From assembly GCA_037444305.1 (NCBI GenBank), contig JBBIMP010000018.1:1-64000 (forward strand): a stretch of DNA of 64,000 nt, read 5' to 3'. The notes under the pieces were generated by a model that was not told the origin of the DNA, ran no database searches, and was given only the letters and a program-made list of their open reading frames with translations. The position numbers were made by a program, and so were the translations under genes. Below, piece by piece: positions 4,934 through 31,827 of this stretch. This stretch comes from Acidobacteriota bacterium. Its GTDB lineage: Bacteria > Acidobacteriota > UBA6911. Numbering within the stretch: position 1 is the first letter of the stretch; every line of letters begins with the position of its first letter.

Positions 4934-5301
4934 ACGCCCGCAGGGGGCGTAGTGTTGTAATCGAGTCCAGAGCCTCGGGCGACACCGCCCTGCGCCGTCC
5001 GCTCCAGTTTCTTGACCTCAATGCCCACGATGCGGTTGATGTCGGTTGTTCGGTGCTTGAGGTCCATTCCTTCGCACATGCGAGGCCGGTACAGGACCAT
5101 GTCGGGGGTGATGAGCGGCCCGGTCGCCCTCGCGCACGAGATCGCTTCGATGCCTGTGAGCACTTCTGTGACAAGGTACTCGTCGAACGGATCGTCTTGG
5201 GTGTTTCGTTTGTCACGAAGTCTGAACGGTACCGGTCGTCCTGCGCTATCGAAAAACCGGTGGCGCAGTGCCAGAAAGGCGAATGTGGGGAGGTCGATCA
5301 T
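4831..5301 (-). CDS. Hypothetical PD-(D/E)xK-like protein; candidate restriction endonuclease, N-terminal part
   Basis: 156 aa containing ..TPDMVLY.. followed about 25 aa later by ..INRIVGIEVKK.. (a PD...E-x-K arrangement). Frame overlap with ORF 4418..4933 suggests a single disrupted gene. Confidence 0.3.
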   Translation of the reverse strand: MIDLPTFAFLALRHRFFDSAGRPVPFRLRDKRNTQDDPFDEYLVTEVLTGIEAISCARATGPLITPDMVLYRPRMCEGMDLKHRTTDINRIVGIEVKKLERTAQGGVARGSGLDYNTTPPAGVCASMMQRVQPSTSAASTYSFAWSAPPTTRRLLS

Positions 5302-5590
5302 GTCCTTGCCTCACTGGTTACGGGGAATGTCTCATCAGGTGCCGCTTATATTATGCGGGTCTCGATAGCTGGATAGGCCGCCAGTCGGCACCCGCTCAAA
5401 CCATCGAGAATATATCTCTCATAGCACAATGTTGTTTAAAGTCAAACGGTTATGCGGAAGCTGATGGGCGGCATATCCAGCTATGCTGCGAGTTCCGCCC
5501 GCTTAACTGGATAACAAGGGCGAAGTTTTGCTGAATCCCACTGCTCCCTTGGCGGACGGGTTCTGTATACTCCCCCTCGCCGCCACAAAC

Positions 5591-23812: not shown

Positions 23813-23928
23813 CAGTGCGGGAAGGGCGTATTGCGCGGTCTTTGGACAAAATCCCCACACAGGCTAAGTACGCCGAAGGAGTCCCACAGAATGCCCAAAA
23901 AAGGCAAACCAAAAGCGAAAAGCAAGTG

Positions 23929-24090
23929 TTACGCCGCGGATTGAATCAGAGACGTGAGCAAGCCTGCGGACGAGATCCTCAAAACCATCGCGAAAGAGGA
24001 TATCAGATACGAGATTTCCACTCTTGTTGGGCATCCCAGATGGGAATGCCGCGGGAAACGCTCACGTCTCGGATTCAATCCGCGGCGTAA
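23929..24090. repeat. 31-bp inverted repeat pair (1 mismatch) flanking 100 bp; a MITE-like or long-hairpin element
   Basis: TTACGCCGCGGATTGAATCAGAGACGTGAGC (23929-23959) versus GCTCACGTCTCGGATTCAATCCGCGGCGTAA (24060-24090). Confidence 0.6.
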
Positions 24091-24157
24091 CAGCACCGGC
24101 GGCGGTCGCCGGAGGCGGTAGAACTTCTCTTGACTCCGAGCGCATTCAGCGCTCGCA

Positions 24158-24508
24158 GTGGAGCAAGGGGGGAGGATGTTGGGAATGCTCAAGAGACATG
24201 AAATCAAGGTTTTACTCAATGCCGGACACTCACAGACTGAAGTTGCCCGCCTGGCCGGCATCTCACTTCGTTCGGTCAAACGCATCGCAAAAGAAGAGGC
24301 CATCACGCATGTCGACGATCATGCTCGGCGCCGGGACTGCGGTATCGGCCAGCCAAACGTGGTTGGGAATTTCCGGAAATCTGTTGTAGCCGTCCTCGAA
24401 AAAGAACCAGGACTGAAGTCGGTCGAGATCCTGCGGCGGATGCGGCTGGAGGGATACAGCGGCGACACCCTTCAGGTTAACTTAGTGGGCGATGAGCGGA
24501 CAGTTTAG
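24158..24508 (+). pseudogene. istA: IS21-family transposase IstA, N-terminal HTH fragment (truncated)
   Basis: MLGMLKRHEIKVLLNAGHSQTEVARLAGISLRSVKRIAKE...EILRRMRLEGYSGD matches the IstA N-terminal HTH region. The ORF stops after about 116 aa, whereas full IstA is about 390 aa, and no istB follows. Confidence 0.55.
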
Positions 24509-24656
24509 GCAATGGAGGTGAGGGCAACGAAAATGTTGTTGGCATACCGTTTTTAAGCAGGGTAGCTTCCAGTCAAGCGGGTGGGTTTTGATGCCGCGTC
24601 TCCCGCGAATTCATCCAACTCAGCCGGCGGACATATTCGTTGCAAGCAGCGCAAGC

Positions 24657-24893
24657 TTACAGATCGTAGTGTTTGTACAAGGTATCGATTTGGCCCGCTA
24701 CAACAACCGCCACGGCCCCCTTTTGGATTCGGTTGAGAGAACGGATAACCTCTCGGACCCTTTTCCCGGACAGCCTGTACTTTGTCGCGCCTCCCGGAGC
24801 ATTTTCGGGCAGGCCAAGAGCTAGAACAAGTTCCACATCCAGCTTATGGAACCCCCTCTGCCTCATGCGCATCTCAGCGTGTTTTGAAAGCAT
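24657..24893 (-). CDS. DUF4258-family protein (toxin-like small protein)
   Basis: 78 aa starting MLSKHAEMRMRQRGF..., with the H-A-x2-R-M-x-E/Q-RG motif characteristic of DUF4258. Confidence 0.55.
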   Translation of the reverse strand: MLSKHAEMRMRQRGFHKLDVELVLALGLPENAPGGATKYRLSGKRVREVIRSLNRIQKGAVAVVVAGQIDTLYKHYDL

Positions 24894-24928
24894 TTTTTCA
24901 TACCTCCAATGGATGAAGGCAAAGGCGA

Positions 24929-25663
24929 TTAATCACACTCCTGCGATTCTTTATTCTCAAAGAACTTGCGTTTCTCAATGGCGTCAACCAATCTCTTGAC
25001 CCAATAAATCCCAGGAACTTTGAGATTCTTAAGAGTGTCCTGCAGATCTCCAGAAGACTGATAAACATTGTCGCATGCGCGCTCGAAATCTCTGGCCTTT
25101 GACAAGACATTTTCTTTGTCTGCCTCTGTAATAAGCTCTTTTTTGAGCAGATCGTCGAGGTGCTTTTTCACTACATCGTATGCAATAAAGCCTGTGAGGT
25201 TTTCGACGACATCGAGAGCACTTGGATTGCTGCTCAGCACTATTTCCAGTGCATTACATGGTGTGAATTCCAGAGCGTTGATGTAGCATTCTAGGAAGTC
25301 CCGCTTAGATCCAACAAGGTACTTGATGAGATTAATGTGACGGACAACATCGACGGGGTAGAATCCAACGGAGCCCCTTTCCGTCTTCCGAATATTGCTG
25401 GTTCCCGATATCAGTTTCATCCCCACATATTTTTTGAAGGTGGGCGCTTTGACCACCATCCCCTTCTTGGCAAGAAGTTCCTGGATTTCTTTAAAAGTCA
25501 AACCCCGCTCTTGGTGCCTTTTTTCGAGCTCATCTAACTCATGCGATGTGAAGTAGCAGGAATGGGTAGCCAAGGATCTACGGTATTGTGGATCATTGAC
25601 GATGGTTCTTGATAGTACATCTCGAAGTTCGGCGTGTTGTTTTGCAAGATCATCTAGTCTCAT
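24929..25663 (-). CDS. Hypothetical 244-aa protein in an AT-rich islet
   Basis: A long ORF in a region of about 42% GC against a 65% GC background. Lys/Glu-rich. It is the upstream partner, 35 bp away, of the DUF4258 gene. No family recognised. Confidence 0.5.
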   Translation of the reverse strand: MRLDDLAKQHAELRDVLSRTIVNDPQYRRSLATHSCYFTSHELDELEKRHQERGLTFKEIQELLAKKGMVVKAPTFKKYVGMKLISGTSNIRKTERGSVGFYPVDVVRHINLIKYLVGSKRDFLECYINALEFTPCNALEIVLSSNPSALDVVENLTGFIAYDVVKKHLDDLLKKELITEADKENVLSKARDFERACDNVYQSSGDLQDTLKNLKVPGIYWVKRLVDAIEKRKFFENKESQECD

Positions 25664-26434
25664 ATTAGTTATCCCTCCAGGGTTATAATAGCTCTCATAG
25701 CTATCGAATAATATACTGCAGTATAATTCATGTAACGTAGCCTGTCAACAATTTTTTTAGAAAGGGCTATCAAGATGCCTTGCTGCGAGGTCGTGGAATT
25801 CGGGCTGTGATTTCCGAAGACGGCTTATAATTTGAAAATAATATATTTAGAGGATTGCAGCTACAGCATGGCTGGCTAGCGCTAACTGCTCGTAATGGAG
25901 TGGAACGACCTAGCCGGCGAGACCTTCAAATTCAATTTTCCCCATGTGTCGATTCTCGCCCTATTTCCCCAATCCCATTCTCAGAAGCTATCCCCCCTTC
26001 AGCTCGACATCGTCTTAGCCGTTTTTGCAACAATGGCAATCTTTTGGTCCATTTTTGTCTGGTGTCGATTTCGCTTTATCCAATGCCGAAGTCGGATAAA
26101 TGCTCTTCATCATCCCGTCTCTCTGTTAGCTTTTGTGTTTCTGGATTGCGGGCAAAAGTCCGACTGGCTGGTGTCGCGACATTCACCGTTTTCGGCTCGG
26201 CCGGCAGGCCCTGAAATTCCTTGTCCACTTCCTCCAGGACCTCCACAAACCGGTTCATGTGGGCGACAACGGCGACCGGGGCAGAAACGACCTGCAACTG
26301 CGTTTTTTTCAATGTCGGCACAAACCTGCACCGGCTGCTGAAGCATACTCCGCCCTGGTCGCCTAATCTCGGTCCCACACGACCGGCAAACACAGGGAGG
26401 GACCACTGGCACTGAGGACCTGACACCATATTCT

Positions 26435-27991
26435 CTACTGTCGGCCCGCAAGATGGAGGCGGCCGTGCAGGCGGATGGCGCCCTCTTCGTAATTCAGCTC
26501 GGCGGAAAACGCTCCCATTTCCTGAAGGGATCCGACTAGGGTGTCCAGCAGCAGGCGCAAGCGCGTGTCGGCCCGCTCCAGCGAGCGGGAGTGAACGAGT
26601 CTCGCGAGCTGCGGGCCGCCCGTGATCAGAGCGCCGTGCGTGCCGGGTGAATTGTAGCCAGCTGGGTGATGTTTCAATCCTTCCACCCAGTTTCTGGCTG
26701 CTCTGGCTGCGCCCACAGAAGTTCCCGCTATCAGGTGATCGTCCCCGATTTCGATCGTCAACACCTCAGCCCGGCCGGAGATTGACTCGAACGAGATTGT
26801 GAGAGTGCTGAGGCCGCCGCTCGATGCGATGCGGTATTGCGGCCTCAGCAGGCCGAAGCTGTCCAGCCAGGCCATTTCACGAAGCCACGCGAGTAAGTCG
26901 CTGAGTGTGGCGTCGAACACTGCGGTCTCGTGCAGTTCAAAAACAACGGCAAGTGCCCTCCCGCCTGAAGCCTCGTCAGGGGTGACCAGGAGCCAGGCAT
27001 GTTCGCCGAAGGCTCCGAAGAGGTCGCGTGAGAGGTCGCGCCGGTACCGCTGCTGAAACTCGTTCAGCCAGAAATCGAGATTGCGCAGCGGTCCCCGCGG
27101 ATCGTTGGCTGAGACATATTGCGCCCAAGGGAGCCAGGCTGCGGGCTCCGGCCGGAACGCCGCCGCCAGCAGCGCGCCGGCAGGCAAGCCCGGCGGCAGC
27201 GTCGACGACGCTGCTTCGGGGTCGAAAAGGCGGAACAGTGCCGGTGGCAGGCGGCCTTCGTCGTAGACAATGACCGCGTCGTCGATGATTTCGCCCCCCG
27301 ACAGTTCGCGCCGGAAGCCTGCGTACCGGACCGCGGCCATTTCGGCTGCCAGGATCGCCTCGAGCCAGTGCATGGGGGCTGAGGTCTCGCGCGACGCCTC
27401 ACGCGCCCAACCCGCCAGGGCCTGGGGATTGATCCAGCCCCGGACCAGTCCCCCCTCCGGCAGCCGGTTGTTTATTTCATCCATCGGAAGCACCCCGGTC
27501 AATCCCATGGAATCCTCCCTGGCGCAGGAGTCAAGGAAAGCCTCGTCACCCGCAGCCCCGACCCAGAGCGCTCCGCGGCCGAACCGGTAGGCGAGCCCGT
27601 CTGCGCGACGGAGAACAGCTTCCGCTTCAAACGGATCGGCGGGCTGCAGGATGGCGATGGGCGTGAGCGCCGGTCGGCGGCCGGCGCGCGCGAGGAAAAC
27701 CACCGCTTCCTCTCCAAGCAGGCGCGGCAGGTGATGGATCGAAATGCCTGCGCACTCGAGGACGGCGTCCTGCAGGCGCGCAATCGGATCAATGGCGCGG
27801 ATTTCATTCCAACGCAGGTCCAGGTCCCTCACCTGGAACGCCAGGATGGCCGAGGCCGGAACGAGGTCCAGCAGCGGCCTCGAGGCCGCGGCGGTGGCGG
27901 CGAGTGAGGATAGCCTCTCGGGGCGCCTGGTGGTGAGAGGAAGGCAGGCCGCGAGAATCAGCAGGCAGAAGCAAGTCGTTTCATGTTTCAC
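26435..27991 (-). CDS. Hypothetical secreted protein (518 aa)
   Basis: Signal peptide MKHETTCFCLLILAACLPLTT. No recognisable catalytic motif. Confidence 0.45.
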   Translation of the reverse strand: MKHETTCFCLLILAACLPLTTRRPERLSSLAATAAASRPLLDLVPASAILAFQVRDLDLRWNEIRAIDPIARLQDAVLECAGISIHHLPRLLGEEAVVFLARAGRRPALTPIAILQPADPFEAEAVLRRADGLAYRFGRGALWVGAAGDEAFLDSCAREDSMGLTGVLPMDEINNRLPEGGLVRGWINPQALAGWAREASRETSAPMHWLEAILAAEMAAVRYAGFRRELSGGEIIDDAVIVYDEGRLPPALFRLFDPEAASSTLPPGLPAGALLAAAFRPEPAAWLPWAQYVSANDPRGPLRNLDFWLNEFQQRYRRDLSRDLFGAFGEHAWLLVTPDEASGGRALAVVFELHETAVFDATLSDLLAWLREMAWLDSFGLLRPQYRIASSGGLSTLTISFESISGRAEVLTIEIGDDHLIAGTSVGAARAARNWVEGLKHHPAGYNSPGTHGALITGGPQLARLVHSRSLERADTRLRLLLDTLVGSLQEMGAFSAELNYEEGAIRLHGRLHLAGRQ

Positions 27992-29723: not shown

Positions 29724-30269
29724 ATGGCCACATTCGACGAAGAGGACCTCAGGGTATCCAGGGTCATGCCCCTCGTGTACGACGAGTTGCGCAGGCTCGC
29801 CCGCCGTTACATGGCGAGGGAGAGGATCGGGCACTCCCTGCAGGCGACGGCGCTCGTCAACGAAGCCTACCTCAAACTCGCAAAGGAAAGAAATCCCGTC
29901 TGGAAGAACCGGGCGCACTTCTGCGCCATCGCGGCAGCATCCATGCGCGAGATCCTGGTGGATCGCGCCCGCGCCCACAAGGCGTCCAAGAGAGGCGGAT
30001 CGCGGGTGCGCGTGACGCTGGGAGACGCCGTCGCCGTCACGGCCGAGGCCGACGTCGACGTACTGGTGCTGGATGAGGCGCTGCGGCGGCTTGCGGGAGT
30101 CGATCCCCAGCAGGCGCGGATCGTGGAACTGCGCTTTTTCGGCGGATTGACCGTGGAAGAGGCGGCCGCCGCGATGGGGATCTCCACGGCGACCGTGAAG
30201 CGCGGCTGGGCCATGGCCAGGGCTTGGCTCAAGGGAGAAATGGAAAGGGAGGGCGGCGATGGACCCTGA
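29724..30269 (+). CDS. ECF-type RNA polymerase sigma factor (Ser/Thr-kinase-associated subgroup)
   Basis: Sigma region 2, ..[31 protein letters not shown].., and region 4, ..[37 protein letters not shown]. Overlaps the downstream kinase gene. Confidence 0.85.
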
Positions 30270-31827
30270 ACGCTGGCGCCGCCTGAAGGAACTGTTCGAA
30301 GGAGCCCTGGCGCTGGACCCTGCGGAACGCGACGAATACCTCGAACGGCGGTGTTCGGGCGACGCGGCGCTGAGGAGGGAGGCGGGGGCGCTGCTGGCCA
30401 ACTACGAGAGCGGGGACGACTTTCTCGAGCGCCCGGCCCACGAGGCGGCCGCGCACCTGTTCGAAGAAAAAGGGGAGGGCGGGGTATGCGTGGGGGAGCG
30501 CCTCGGTCCCTACGCTCTCAAGGGCAAGCTGGGCGAGGGGGGCATGGGCGTCGTCTATCTGGCGGAAGACACTCGCCTGGGACGAGAGGTCGCCCTGAAG
30601 GTTCTGCCGCCGCGCCTGGCGAGCGACGAGCGCTTCCGGGCGCGCCTGCGGCGCGAGGCGCTGGCCGTCGCCAGCCTCTCGCACCCCGGAATTGCCACCC
30701 TTTTCGCGCTGGAAGAAATCGAGGGAAGCCTCTGCCTGGTGCGCGAGTATGTGCACGGCCGAACCCTCCGGGAAGAGCTGTCCTCGGGGCCGTTGCCGCC
30801 GGGGGCGCTTCTCGAGTGCGCCGTGCGCATTGTCCGGGCGCTTGCAGCGGCGCACGCCCAGGGGATCATCCACCGGGATCTCAAGCCCGAGAACGTGATC
30901 CGGACGGATTCCGGGGAGACGAAGATCCTCGACTTCGGCCTCGCGAGGTTTCAAGGTGCGCAGCGGTTGCGCGACAGCCTGTCAGAACCCCGGTTGACGA
31001 AGAGCGGGGCCTTTGTCGGGACCCCGGCGTACGCCTCTCCGGAGCAACTGCTCGGCAGCGGGGTGGATTTCCGCACCGACATTTTCTCCCTCGGCGTGCT
31101 GCTGTTCGAGCTCGCATCGGGAGTGCATCCCTTCGCCGCACCCGACCCCATTTCCTCCATCGCCCGCATATTCGAGGCGGACAGCGTGGACCTGTCCCCG
31201 GTCGATTCAGGCGGCCCTCCCGGCCTGGGCCGGATCCTCCGGCGGTGCCTGCACAAAGACCCGGCACGTCGCTACGGCAGCACCGGGGAACTGGCGGCGG
31301 ACCTGGAGGCCTTGCGGGCCGCCTTCAAAGGGTCGCGAACCGCGGAGCCCGGCGAGATGGAGACCGGCGGGCCCGGAAGCAATGCCGCACGGCTGAAGCC
31401 GCTCTGGTGGTGGCGGTTTCACCAGGCCGCCGTCGGCATCATCTACTATGGGATGCTCTACCCGCTGTGGAAGGCGAGGGAGTGGATGGGCAGCCCCATG
31501 GGGGATTGGCTATTTTTCGCCGCTCTGATCGCCGTGGCGGTGGCCTCCAACCTGCGCTTTCACCTCTGGTTCACCTCCGTCTTTTACCCGGCCGAGCTCC
31601 AGGGACAGCTGCGCCGGTCTTTTCGCTGGATCCGCGGCGCAGACGTTGCGTTTGTGTTCCTCCTGGCTGCCGGGGGGGCGGCGATTCTGCGTACGCGGGG
31701 CGCCGTGGCGGCCCTGCTGATCGCCGTGGCCATCGGCTGCCTGGTGCAGTGCACGCTGATTGAACCGACCACTACCAGGGCCGCGTTCGCGCCGGAGAAG
31801 GATGACGGGGTCAATCGGGCCGTGTGA
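30259..31827 (+). CDS. Ser/Thr protein kinase with a C-terminal multi-TM domain (probable anti-sigma/partner of the ECF sigma)
   Basis: [28 protein letters not shown] (glycine-rich loop and VAIK-like Lys), HRDLKPENV (catalytic loop), [15 protein letters not shown], followed by four hydrophobic helices. The N-terminus has the region shared with kinase-linked ECF systems. Confidence 0.9.

Follow-up and report, generated by a model that had tools for sequence, protein, structure and literature searches.

The 64,000-nt stretch of Acidobacteriota DNA analyzed here (positions 1 to 64,000 of contig JBBIMP010000018.1, assembly GCA_037444305.1; hereafter the window) contains, near 25 kb, an islet of ~1.5 kb with a low guanine + cytosine (GC) content, which we interpret, with a probability of roughly 60%, as a horizontally acquired type II toxin-antitoxin-like operon. 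The islet carries two minus-strand genes spaced by 35 bp, exactly where the first-pass annotation of this DNA had placed them: gene A, which encodes a protein of 244 amino acids (aa), and gene B, which encodes a protein of 78 aa (Table 1). Under our interpretation, the toxin is B, a divergent DUF4258/RelE-superfamily protein, and the role of antitoxin and autorepressor falls to A, a large protein of a new kind with a helix-turn-helix (HTH). A single sigma-70 promoter (25748-25720) would transcribe A, then B. The product of B would be a growth-inhibiting effector from the DUF4258 branch of the RelE/ParE (BECR-fold) toxins, most likely a ribonuclease (RNase). The winged HTH core of A would bind palindromes in the promoter and repress the operon, and the fast-evolving, helical C-terminal half of A would bind and neutralize B. 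In the window, the module would have lost a variable third gene, a truncated insertion sequence (IS) of the IS21 family now lying in its place.

Average GC content is 63% over the window. A GC drop had been reported at 24.9-26.0 kb, and 300-nt sliding windows do give values of 39-46% over 24.8-26.0 kb, the flanks being at 60-69%. When 1-kb windows are used, the sole stretch of the 64 kb below 55% is 23901-26700, the lowest value being 43.8% at 24901-25900 (robust z = -6.7). As no tRNA, tmRNA or Rfam family was detected within the window, an RNA gene, which had been named as a possible source of the dip, is ruled out. Loci carrying relatives of the module are referred to below by L numbers. In every host, the A-B module, with or without the third gene that we call C, shows a GC content of 44-48%, against flanking values of 52-57% elsewhere and 63% here. 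Its neighbors in other genomes include BrxL together with DarT-Macro-DarT genes, an integrase, and Mu-like or IS21 transposases. Because the module is poor in GC in every host, adjoins an IS21 remnant in the window, and keeps company with BREX and DarTG genes, an integrase and Mu-like transposases elsewhere, the foreign origin previously proposed for the islet is supported, and we regard the module as acquired by horizontal transfer. In locus L005 (2794-9823), the BrxL (BREX) gene and the DarT-Macro-DarT cluster lie immediately 5' of an A-B-C cassette, a typical defense-island setting. Window coordinates are identical to those of the first 64 kb of contig CAZIEJ010000014.1 (assembly GCA_964538715.1), and an independent assembly (Logan SRR11582151, locus L002) encodes identical A and B proteins in the same arrangement.

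The first-pass annotation had identified B as a DUF4258 protein, which proves to be correct as regards kinship, but not as regards formal membership. In Pfam, B matches DUF4258 (PF14076) with an E-value of 3.8e-4 and a score of 21.1 bits, under the gathering cut-off of 25, and the match spans positions 1-46 of the 71 profile positions, corresponding to the N-terminal two thirds of B. The family signal is nevertheless recurrent, as DUF4258 is detected at E <= 0.01 in 14 of the 28 distinct B-type partners of A (best E-value 2.9e-6) and no other family recurs among them. In addition, a relative from L013, which is 51% identical to B and occurs in the same A-B arrangement, reaches 25.6 bits over profile positions 2-70, above the cut-off. 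Since B falls under the cut-off while its L013 relative passes it and half of the partners match, we consider B to be, by transitive evidence from sequence, a divergent relative of DUF4258 rather than a scored member. Four residues are invariant in the B family (H5, R9, G27 and T71) and three others (Q12, R13 and Y73) are found in at least 90% of its members; the B protein of the window has all seven. Close relatives of B form seven clusters with 51-86% identity, and ratios of nonsynonymous to synonymous substitution rates (dN/dS) of 0.03-0.28, calculated here and below for pairs without saturated synonymous sites, indicate purifying selection. No solved structure related to B emerged when the PDB was searched with profiles built from its alignments; a match to B of a PscE / Z-alpha-like winged helix (E = 0.017) was judged to be due to chance. 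According to a 2025 survey (PMC11980606), DUF4258 itself is one of 13 BECR-fold RelE/ParE toxin families and comprises ~6,000 members, with a gene order of antitoxin, then toxin, and a target that is not known. It is also found as a toxin tip of CdiA, annotated 'tRNase (?)' (PMC11630599).

Gene A had been described as lacking any obvious family, and no family match was found for it in Pfam, NCBIfam, PADLOC or PHROGs. It had also been said that DUF4258 proteins are usually paired with small DUF2283-type antitoxins. This could not be verified: the literature consulted names HicB-type partners and MqsA fusions instead, and DUF2283 is not among the Pfam matches of A, a 244-aa protein, up to E = 1. 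In a search of 5.8 billion proteins, close relatives of A formed just six clusters, with full-length identities of 55-70%. A profile of these six retrieved 181 proteins at E <= 1e-3 from 1.84 billion representatives, 60 of them at E <= 1e-10; family members are ~225-260 aa long, and the majority of the 181 matches measure 225-256 aa. Narrow patterns found no close relative of A in GTDB genomes, but a broader alignment did find relatives there. The dN/dS values of A (0.10-0.26) again indicate purifying selection. Given these values and the existence of orthologues that are 55-70% identical, A is a real, conserved gene, and the poor coding potential that had been envisaged for the 244-aa open reading frame (ORF) does not apply.

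AlphaFold2 yielded a confident model of A when provided with an alignment of 64 distant relatives (predicted local distance difference test, pLDDT, 95.5; predicted template modeling score, pTM, 0.78); with six sequences only, pLDDT was 48.6 and the model was unusable. In the model, N-terminal helices (residues 3-49) are followed by a helix (57-66), a second helix (73-81), a beta-hairpin (90-102) and a further helix (106-119), and the elements spanning 57-119 make up a winged HTH. The remainder is a helical bundle (123-174) followed by a long antiparallel helical hairpin (180-242), and no known fold neighbor was found for this C-terminal half. Conservation in the family centers on residues 34-122, a core whose nearest sequence matches are the HTH of StbA (7pc1, E = 0.0022), 2lvs and the N-terminal HTH of the IS21 transposase IstA; similarity to StbA and IstA is weak but genuine. 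We thus consider A to be a putative DNA-binding protein of an undescribed family, with a predicted winged HTH core. The first-pass annotation had suggested a regulatory or sensor partner; what the data point to is DNA binding. Excisionase, PrtN and MerR-type proteins are among its weak structural neighbors, and MerR-type regulators are prominent in Foldseek searches of PDB and BFVD with the model, albeit with non-significant E-values (>= 0.13). Pfam MerR_1 scores 15.1 bits against A of the window, with a cut-off of 21.6, and is found below threshold in nine of 47 A relatives (best E-value 5.4e-4). Membership of the MerR family was rejected on these grounds and because the HTH of A begins around residue 57 instead of being N-terminal. 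A literature search on MerR-type antitoxins returned nothing relevant, and Pfam matches of A to CARD, Iso_dh and TBPIP were discarded as chance hits.

Linkage between A and B was evaluated in 53 loci encoding 41 distinct A proteins, obtained by exact look-ups, from GTDB genomes and from Joint Genome Institute (JGI) metagenomes. GTDB hosts were Desulfosarcina widdelii, Desulfogranum marinum and metagenome-assembled genomes of Bacteroidales, Syntrophaceae, Parcubacteria and Deltaproteobacteria, so that A relatives come from Desulfobacterota, Bacteroidota, Parcubacteria and metagenomes. Nearly all of the loci were found through A, and B was called nearby by local hidden Markov model searches of all six-frame ORFs. 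Three of the 41 A lineages lie at contig edges and are undecidable for B. Among the 38 with enough flank, 33 carry a B-type, DUF4258-like gene adjacent to A and on the same strand, as A-then-B in 28 lineages and B-then-A in five, with gaps ranging from -14 to +60 nt. The co-occurrence of the two families, proposed earlier as a check of the pairing, is thus observed in both orders. As adjacency outlasts changes of gene order across phyla, there is strong evidence that A and B form a functional pair. Such a conserved pair of linked genes, here with a single upstream promoter, is what is expected of type II toxin-antitoxin systems.

Decayed copies of the module bear on which partner is harmful. 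In L006 (3099-3335), L007 and L008, which contain the same allele in three separate metagenomes, codon 57 of B, which specifies Arg or Gln in relatives, is an in-frame TGA; the frame past the TGA is still conserved, and both A and C are intact. In three other loci (L016 1193-1243, L043 1409-1459 and L044 713-763), B is cut to its first 17 codons after an intact A. It is therefore B, and not A, that decays in these loci, all of which were seeded with A, a pattern that fits a harmful B and an antidote A, as decayed copies have lost B and kept A. The same observation argues against reversed roles, in which A would be toxic or act as the effector and the small B would be the antidote. Size would favor this assignment, since of two partners the smaller is often the antitoxin and the larger the toxin, and so would the C-terminal half of A, with its lack of known fold neighbors. 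However, likeness to a toxin family belongs to B and not to A, A holds the DNA-binding domain expected of an autoregulating antitoxin, and lineages with a lost or truncated B retain an intact A, which would be lethal if A were toxic. We consider reversed roles to be very improbable. As a side observation, the B remnant of L016 and L043 is followed by a 106-aa coiled-coil ORF, of which L044 has a truncated relative.

The pair might also be harmless, A being a MerR/excisionase-like regulator of a mobile element and B a small cofactor with which it steers cargo genes. The clearest feature of A is indeed its DNA-binding HTH, with excisionase, PrtN and MerR-type proteins as weak neighbors, the DUF4258 match of B is sub-threshold, the module is always found in mobile or variable regions, and A occurs without B in five lineages. 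Against this, a predicted toxin family provides the sole recurrent signal of B, and decayed loci lose B by nonsense mutation or truncation with A intact, which would be unexpected for a harmless cofactor. Furthermore, gene order flips with adjacency kept, as is typical of toxin-antitoxin pairs, and the module has no integrase, excision or attachment feature of its own. We find such a non-toxic regulatory pair rather unlikely, and favor a toxin-antitoxin pair.

Within such a pair, sequence divergence offers a hint as to where A may contact B. The C-terminal half is the most divergent part of A (mean p-distance 0.77), and also the part whose pairwise distances correlate best with those of B (r = 0.82). 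Partial correlations with B are 0.47 for the C-terminal half when the HTH is controlled for, and 0.18 for the HTH when the C-terminal half is controlled for. The C-terminal half could thus be the B-binding region.

The regulatory layout upstream of A was examined next to an earlier suggestion that about 750 bp of AT-rich non-coding DNA at 25664-26430 may hold the promoter and regulatory sites. This suggestion is correct for the first ~90 bp, which contain the single promoter and the leader of A, and does not extend to most of the remainder. The 771 bp at 25664-26434 consist of these ~90 bp, ~350 bp of featureless AT-rich DNA, and ~350 bp occupied by a possible ORF; GC content is 36-52% to ~26100 only and 57-63% beyond. 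Alignment with other loci shows conservation ending at the promoter, and no conserved feature was found in the AT-rich DNA 5' of it (25749..26100). Of 35 distinct related loci, 32 have a TTGAC element 5' of their first gene, in most cases at a distance of 64-86 nt from the start codon (background 0.13 per 110 nt).

Two inverted repeats accompany the promoter of the window (Table 1). The first is the perfect palindrome TATACTGCAGTATA, at whose equivalent position L005 has TATACCGCTGTATA. GATAGC-type half-sites recur in close relatives of the module, and GATAG/CTATC is found one to three times in the 110 nt 5' of A in L001, L003, L005 and L006 (background 0.19 per 100 nt). Across related loci, the best perfect inverted repeat in the 60 nt between -35 and +20 has a mean arm of 5.69 nt, compared with 4.60 nt in shuffled sequences. 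Other clades exhibit CATATG-centered or TCGC-N4-GCGA palindromes between -35 and the start. A single operator motif common to the whole family was rejected, as TATAC-N-GTATA occurs in just three of the 35 upstream regions. Judging from sequence, the arrangement of promoter and palindromes is compatible with autorepression by an HTH protein, a role that A may fill.

Most relatives have a third gene after A-B; in the majority of loci, it is co-directional with the pair and starts within tens of nucleotides of it. Third genes belong to several recurrent but mutually unrelated families (Table 1), some of them with signals of DNA binding or restriction, whose domain assignments are all below threshold except Mrr_N. 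In the close clade, gene C (140-165 aa), counted in five lineages, follows B in L003-L007 and L009-L011. Neither Pfam, PADLOC nor PDB provided a match for it, and tblastn found no trace of it in the window. Gene C forms 154 clusters and is far more widely spread than A-B. Where it occurs without the pair, it is found beside a reverse transcriptase and a Fic gene (L023) or in a mobile island with KAP-NTPase and ParA-like genes (L024-L027). One A clade (L035 and L042) has no B and carries a RAMA/SeqA_N-like gene directly after A, and a decayed copy of this gene, a fragment, is present in L020 (5730-5903). Intact A-B pairs without a third gene are found in L029, L051 and L052.

Two readings of the third gene can be envisaged: cargo of variable islands that has nothing to do with A-B, or an exchangeable part of a larger system. 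In the latter case, A-B would be the conserved core of a three-gene defense or conflict system in which the third gene, encoding a small DNA-binding protein or 'reader' of modified DNA, provides the trigger or specificity, A relays the signal and B is the effector; the window would then contain a disabled remnant, deprived of its third gene by the insertion of IS21. Co-directional third genes of recurrent families in most loci, the IS21 remnant exactly at the third-gene position of the window, and BREX and DarTG genes among the neighbors all point in this direction. Conversely, third genes are mutually non-homologous and missing from the three intact loci cited above, gene C with its 154 clusters stands alone elsewhere like independent cargo, and Mrr_N aside the domain assignments are sub-threshold. 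No component matches a PADLOC model: searches of PADLOC-DB 2.0 with A, B, a divergent 258-aa A (L009) and gene C gave no match at E <= 1. Finally, although the window has no third gene, its A and B are intact and evolve under purifying selection. We regard such a three-gene system as possible, though improbable. It is likewise conceivable, at low likelihood, that an interchangeable third gene reads the state of DNA (modification, hemimethylation or foreign origin) and that the three-domain A responds by releasing the DUF4258 toxin, in which case the window would contain a natural core-only variant.

Several observations weigh against our preferred interpretation of the islet as a toxin-antitoxin-like operon. 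Classic addiction modules are common on plasmids and phages, and searches of PLSDB plasmids, INPHARED phages and IMG/VR yielded no relative of A. The presence of a variable third gene after A-B in most relatives hints at a larger system. B is absent from five of the 38 lineages with enough flank, and since a RAMA/SeqA_N-like gene stands directly after A in some of these, A can exist without the B toxin. The B protein of the window is under the Pfam threshold for DUF4258 and has no solved structure related to it by sequence. Statistics on co-evolution and palindromes are modest and ignore phylogeny. There are also no published experiments on any DUF4258 toxin-antitoxin pair, the toxin role of the family being itself a prediction (PMC11980606).

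How does the module compare with described systems? With the predicted toxins of DUF4258, B shares an N-terminal H-x3-R-x2-QRG motif region, a C-terminal T-x-Y strand and a size of ~80 aa, and the module is a two-gene operon, mostly antitoxin-then-toxin under our assignment, as reported for the family (PMC11980606). By contrast, B and most of its close partners lie under the Pfam cut-off and represent a divergent sub-branch, and A, from a 225-260-aa family without database entry, is unlike the antitoxin types named for DUF4258 in the literature consulted (HicB-type in Synechocystis, MqsA fusions). Classical type II modules with an HTH antitoxin (HigBA, MqsRA, RelE-YiaG type) are likewise bicistronic, with tight or overlapping spacing, a partner with a DNA-binding domain (predicted in the case of A), promoter-overlapping palindromes (candidate operators here), a patchy mobile distribution and a toxin gene that decays first. 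A is, however, far larger than their antitoxins and has three parts (N-terminal helical segment, winged HTH, bundle plus long hairpin), its HTH is not of the XRE/Cro type, and a variable third gene is usual after A-B.

The core of A shares with MerR/excisionase-type proteins a helix-turn-helix, a beta-hairpin wing and the next helix, and MerR regulators (CarH, NmlR and BmrR) and MerR-type phage proteins are at the top of the weak Foldseek lists. Nevertheless, no match reaches significance, the HTH of A is not N-terminal, and the promoter of A has a 17-nt spacer instead of the 19-20 nt of MerR-activated promoters. Lastly, as in defense-island cassettes that combine a core with a swappable sensor or reader, small genes that are unrelated to one another and show Mrr_N, RAMA-like and SeqA-like signals come after the A-B core, with BREX and DarTG neighbors in one locus. 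The differences are that PADLOC has no match and that the third gene is absent from the window and from several intact loci.

The toxin superfamily and the operon logic are thus already known, while no description of the A family, of its architecture or of the variable third position was found in the libraries and literature searched. As a minimal, apparently intact module with its own promoter, the pair could help establish the target of DUF4258 toxins. At the 50% identity level, the A family counts no fewer than 181 representatives, and its description would let many environmental genomes be annotated. If the link with the third gene is functional, the module might be part of a modular defense system, which would attract broader interest than another toxin-antitoxin pair; should it prove to be no more than a new type II module, it would be an addition to an already very large class.

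Table 1. Coordinates of the features of the islet and its surroundings, and of third genes following A-B (or found independently) in other loci.
Feature	Sequence	Position	Strand	Basis
166-bp element with 33-nt terminal inverted repeats (TG...CA ends), probable left end of IS21 remnant	Window	23927..24092	.	Repeat scan
istA 5' fragment, IS21 family, 96 codons; ORF continues to stop at 24508	Window	24176..24463	+	NCBIfam, tblastn
Junction DNA of obscure origin between module and IS remnant; site of third gene in relatives	Window	24464..24640	.	No gene C trace; homology limits 24640 / 24463
Downstream module edge, last 16 nt homologous to related loci past B stop	Window	24641..24656	-	Alignment
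Gene B, 78 aa, divergent DUF4258-like (RelE/ParE-superfamily) putative toxin	Window	24657..24893	-	ORF, Pfam, relatives
Shine-Dalgarno GGAGG, 9 nt 5' of B ATG	Window	24903..24907	-	Sequence reading
Gene A, 244 aa, undescribed family; predicted winged HTH core (~aa 40-119) and helical C-terminal half ending in long hairpin	Window	24929..25663	-	ORF, AlphaFold2
Shine-Dalgarno GGAGGG, 9 nt 5' of A ATG	Window	25673..25678	-	Sequence reading
Second inverted repeat, ATAGCT-N5-AGCTAT, in 5' untranslated region	Window	25688..25704	.	Repeat scan
Perfect 14-bp palindrome TATACTGCAGTATA over -10 hexamer and likely transcription start; candidate operator	Window	25712..25725	.	Repeat scan
Sigma-70-type promoter, TTGACA, 17-nt spacer, TATACT, 11/12 matches	Window	25720..25748	-	Promoter scan
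AT-rich DNA 5' of promoter, GC 37-52%	Window	25749..26100	.	GC windows, alignment
Gene C	L003	11120-11611
Gene C	L005	11135-11569
Gene C	L006	3388-3810
Gene C	L009	2334-2762
Gene C	L023-L027	~5001-5426
Third gene, Mrr_N, solid match	L017	5950-6255		Pfam 2.6e-13
Third gene, RAMA-like family with SeqA_N-type N-terminus, 5 lineages	L042	1589-2041		Pfam 8.2e-5; PDB 1xrx E = 7.7e-4
Third gene, 150-aa family with faint SeqA C-terminal similarity, 6 lineages	L015	5948-6400		Pfam 0.013; PDB E = 0.4
Third gene, 121-152-aa family with faint winged-helix-type match, 5 lineages	L018	3426-3839		Pfam Linker_histone E = 0.015
Third gene, protein with borderline methyladenine glycosylase match	L021	6015-6815

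On the downstream side, homology to related loci stops near 24640, ~16 nt beyond the stop codon of B. The truncated IS21-family element that lies further on (23927-24463) belongs to the same low-GC stretch and was absent from the first-pass annotation; it occupies the position held by the third gene in relatives. Its istA fragment matches NCBIfam transpos_IS21 with an E-value of 2e-6 (27.5 bits, with a cut-off of 160) and, in tblastn, is 45% identical to annotated istA genes over aa 1-96, the rest of the ORF being unrelated. No istB was found alongside. The repeats of the 166-bp element are 97% complementary, its predicted fold has a z-score of -11 relative to shuffled sequences, and it is present as a single copy in the window. 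The independent contig of L002 breaks exactly at 23927, where this element has its outer end, and this points to a repeated (IS) terminus. From its sequence, the IS21 element appears to be a remnant rather than a complete copy.

On the other side, the islet boundary lies near 26100-26150, where GC content regains the host level. No convincing flanking direct repeats or attachment (att) sites were found around the islet. A 117-codon ORF (26076-26429, minus strand) begins 5 nt past the stop of the upstream 518-aa gene, and its GC contents at the three codon positions (0.63/0.45/0.61) are coding-like. It has no Pfam match and was called as a gene by one pipeline (L002), while being absent from the NCBI record; it may be a small host gene continuing the upstream operon or what is left of a gene at the border of the islet. 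For the flanking 518-aa protein, the metagenome collection yielded no relative, and its 90% cluster consists of short fragments only. Further upstream, an extracytoplasmic function (ECF) sigma factor gene of the PF07638 type adjoins a Ser/Thr protein kinase gene (window 29724-31827; L001 3837-5940). Pairing of such sigma factors with Ser/Thr kinases is common in Planctomycetota-like genomes.

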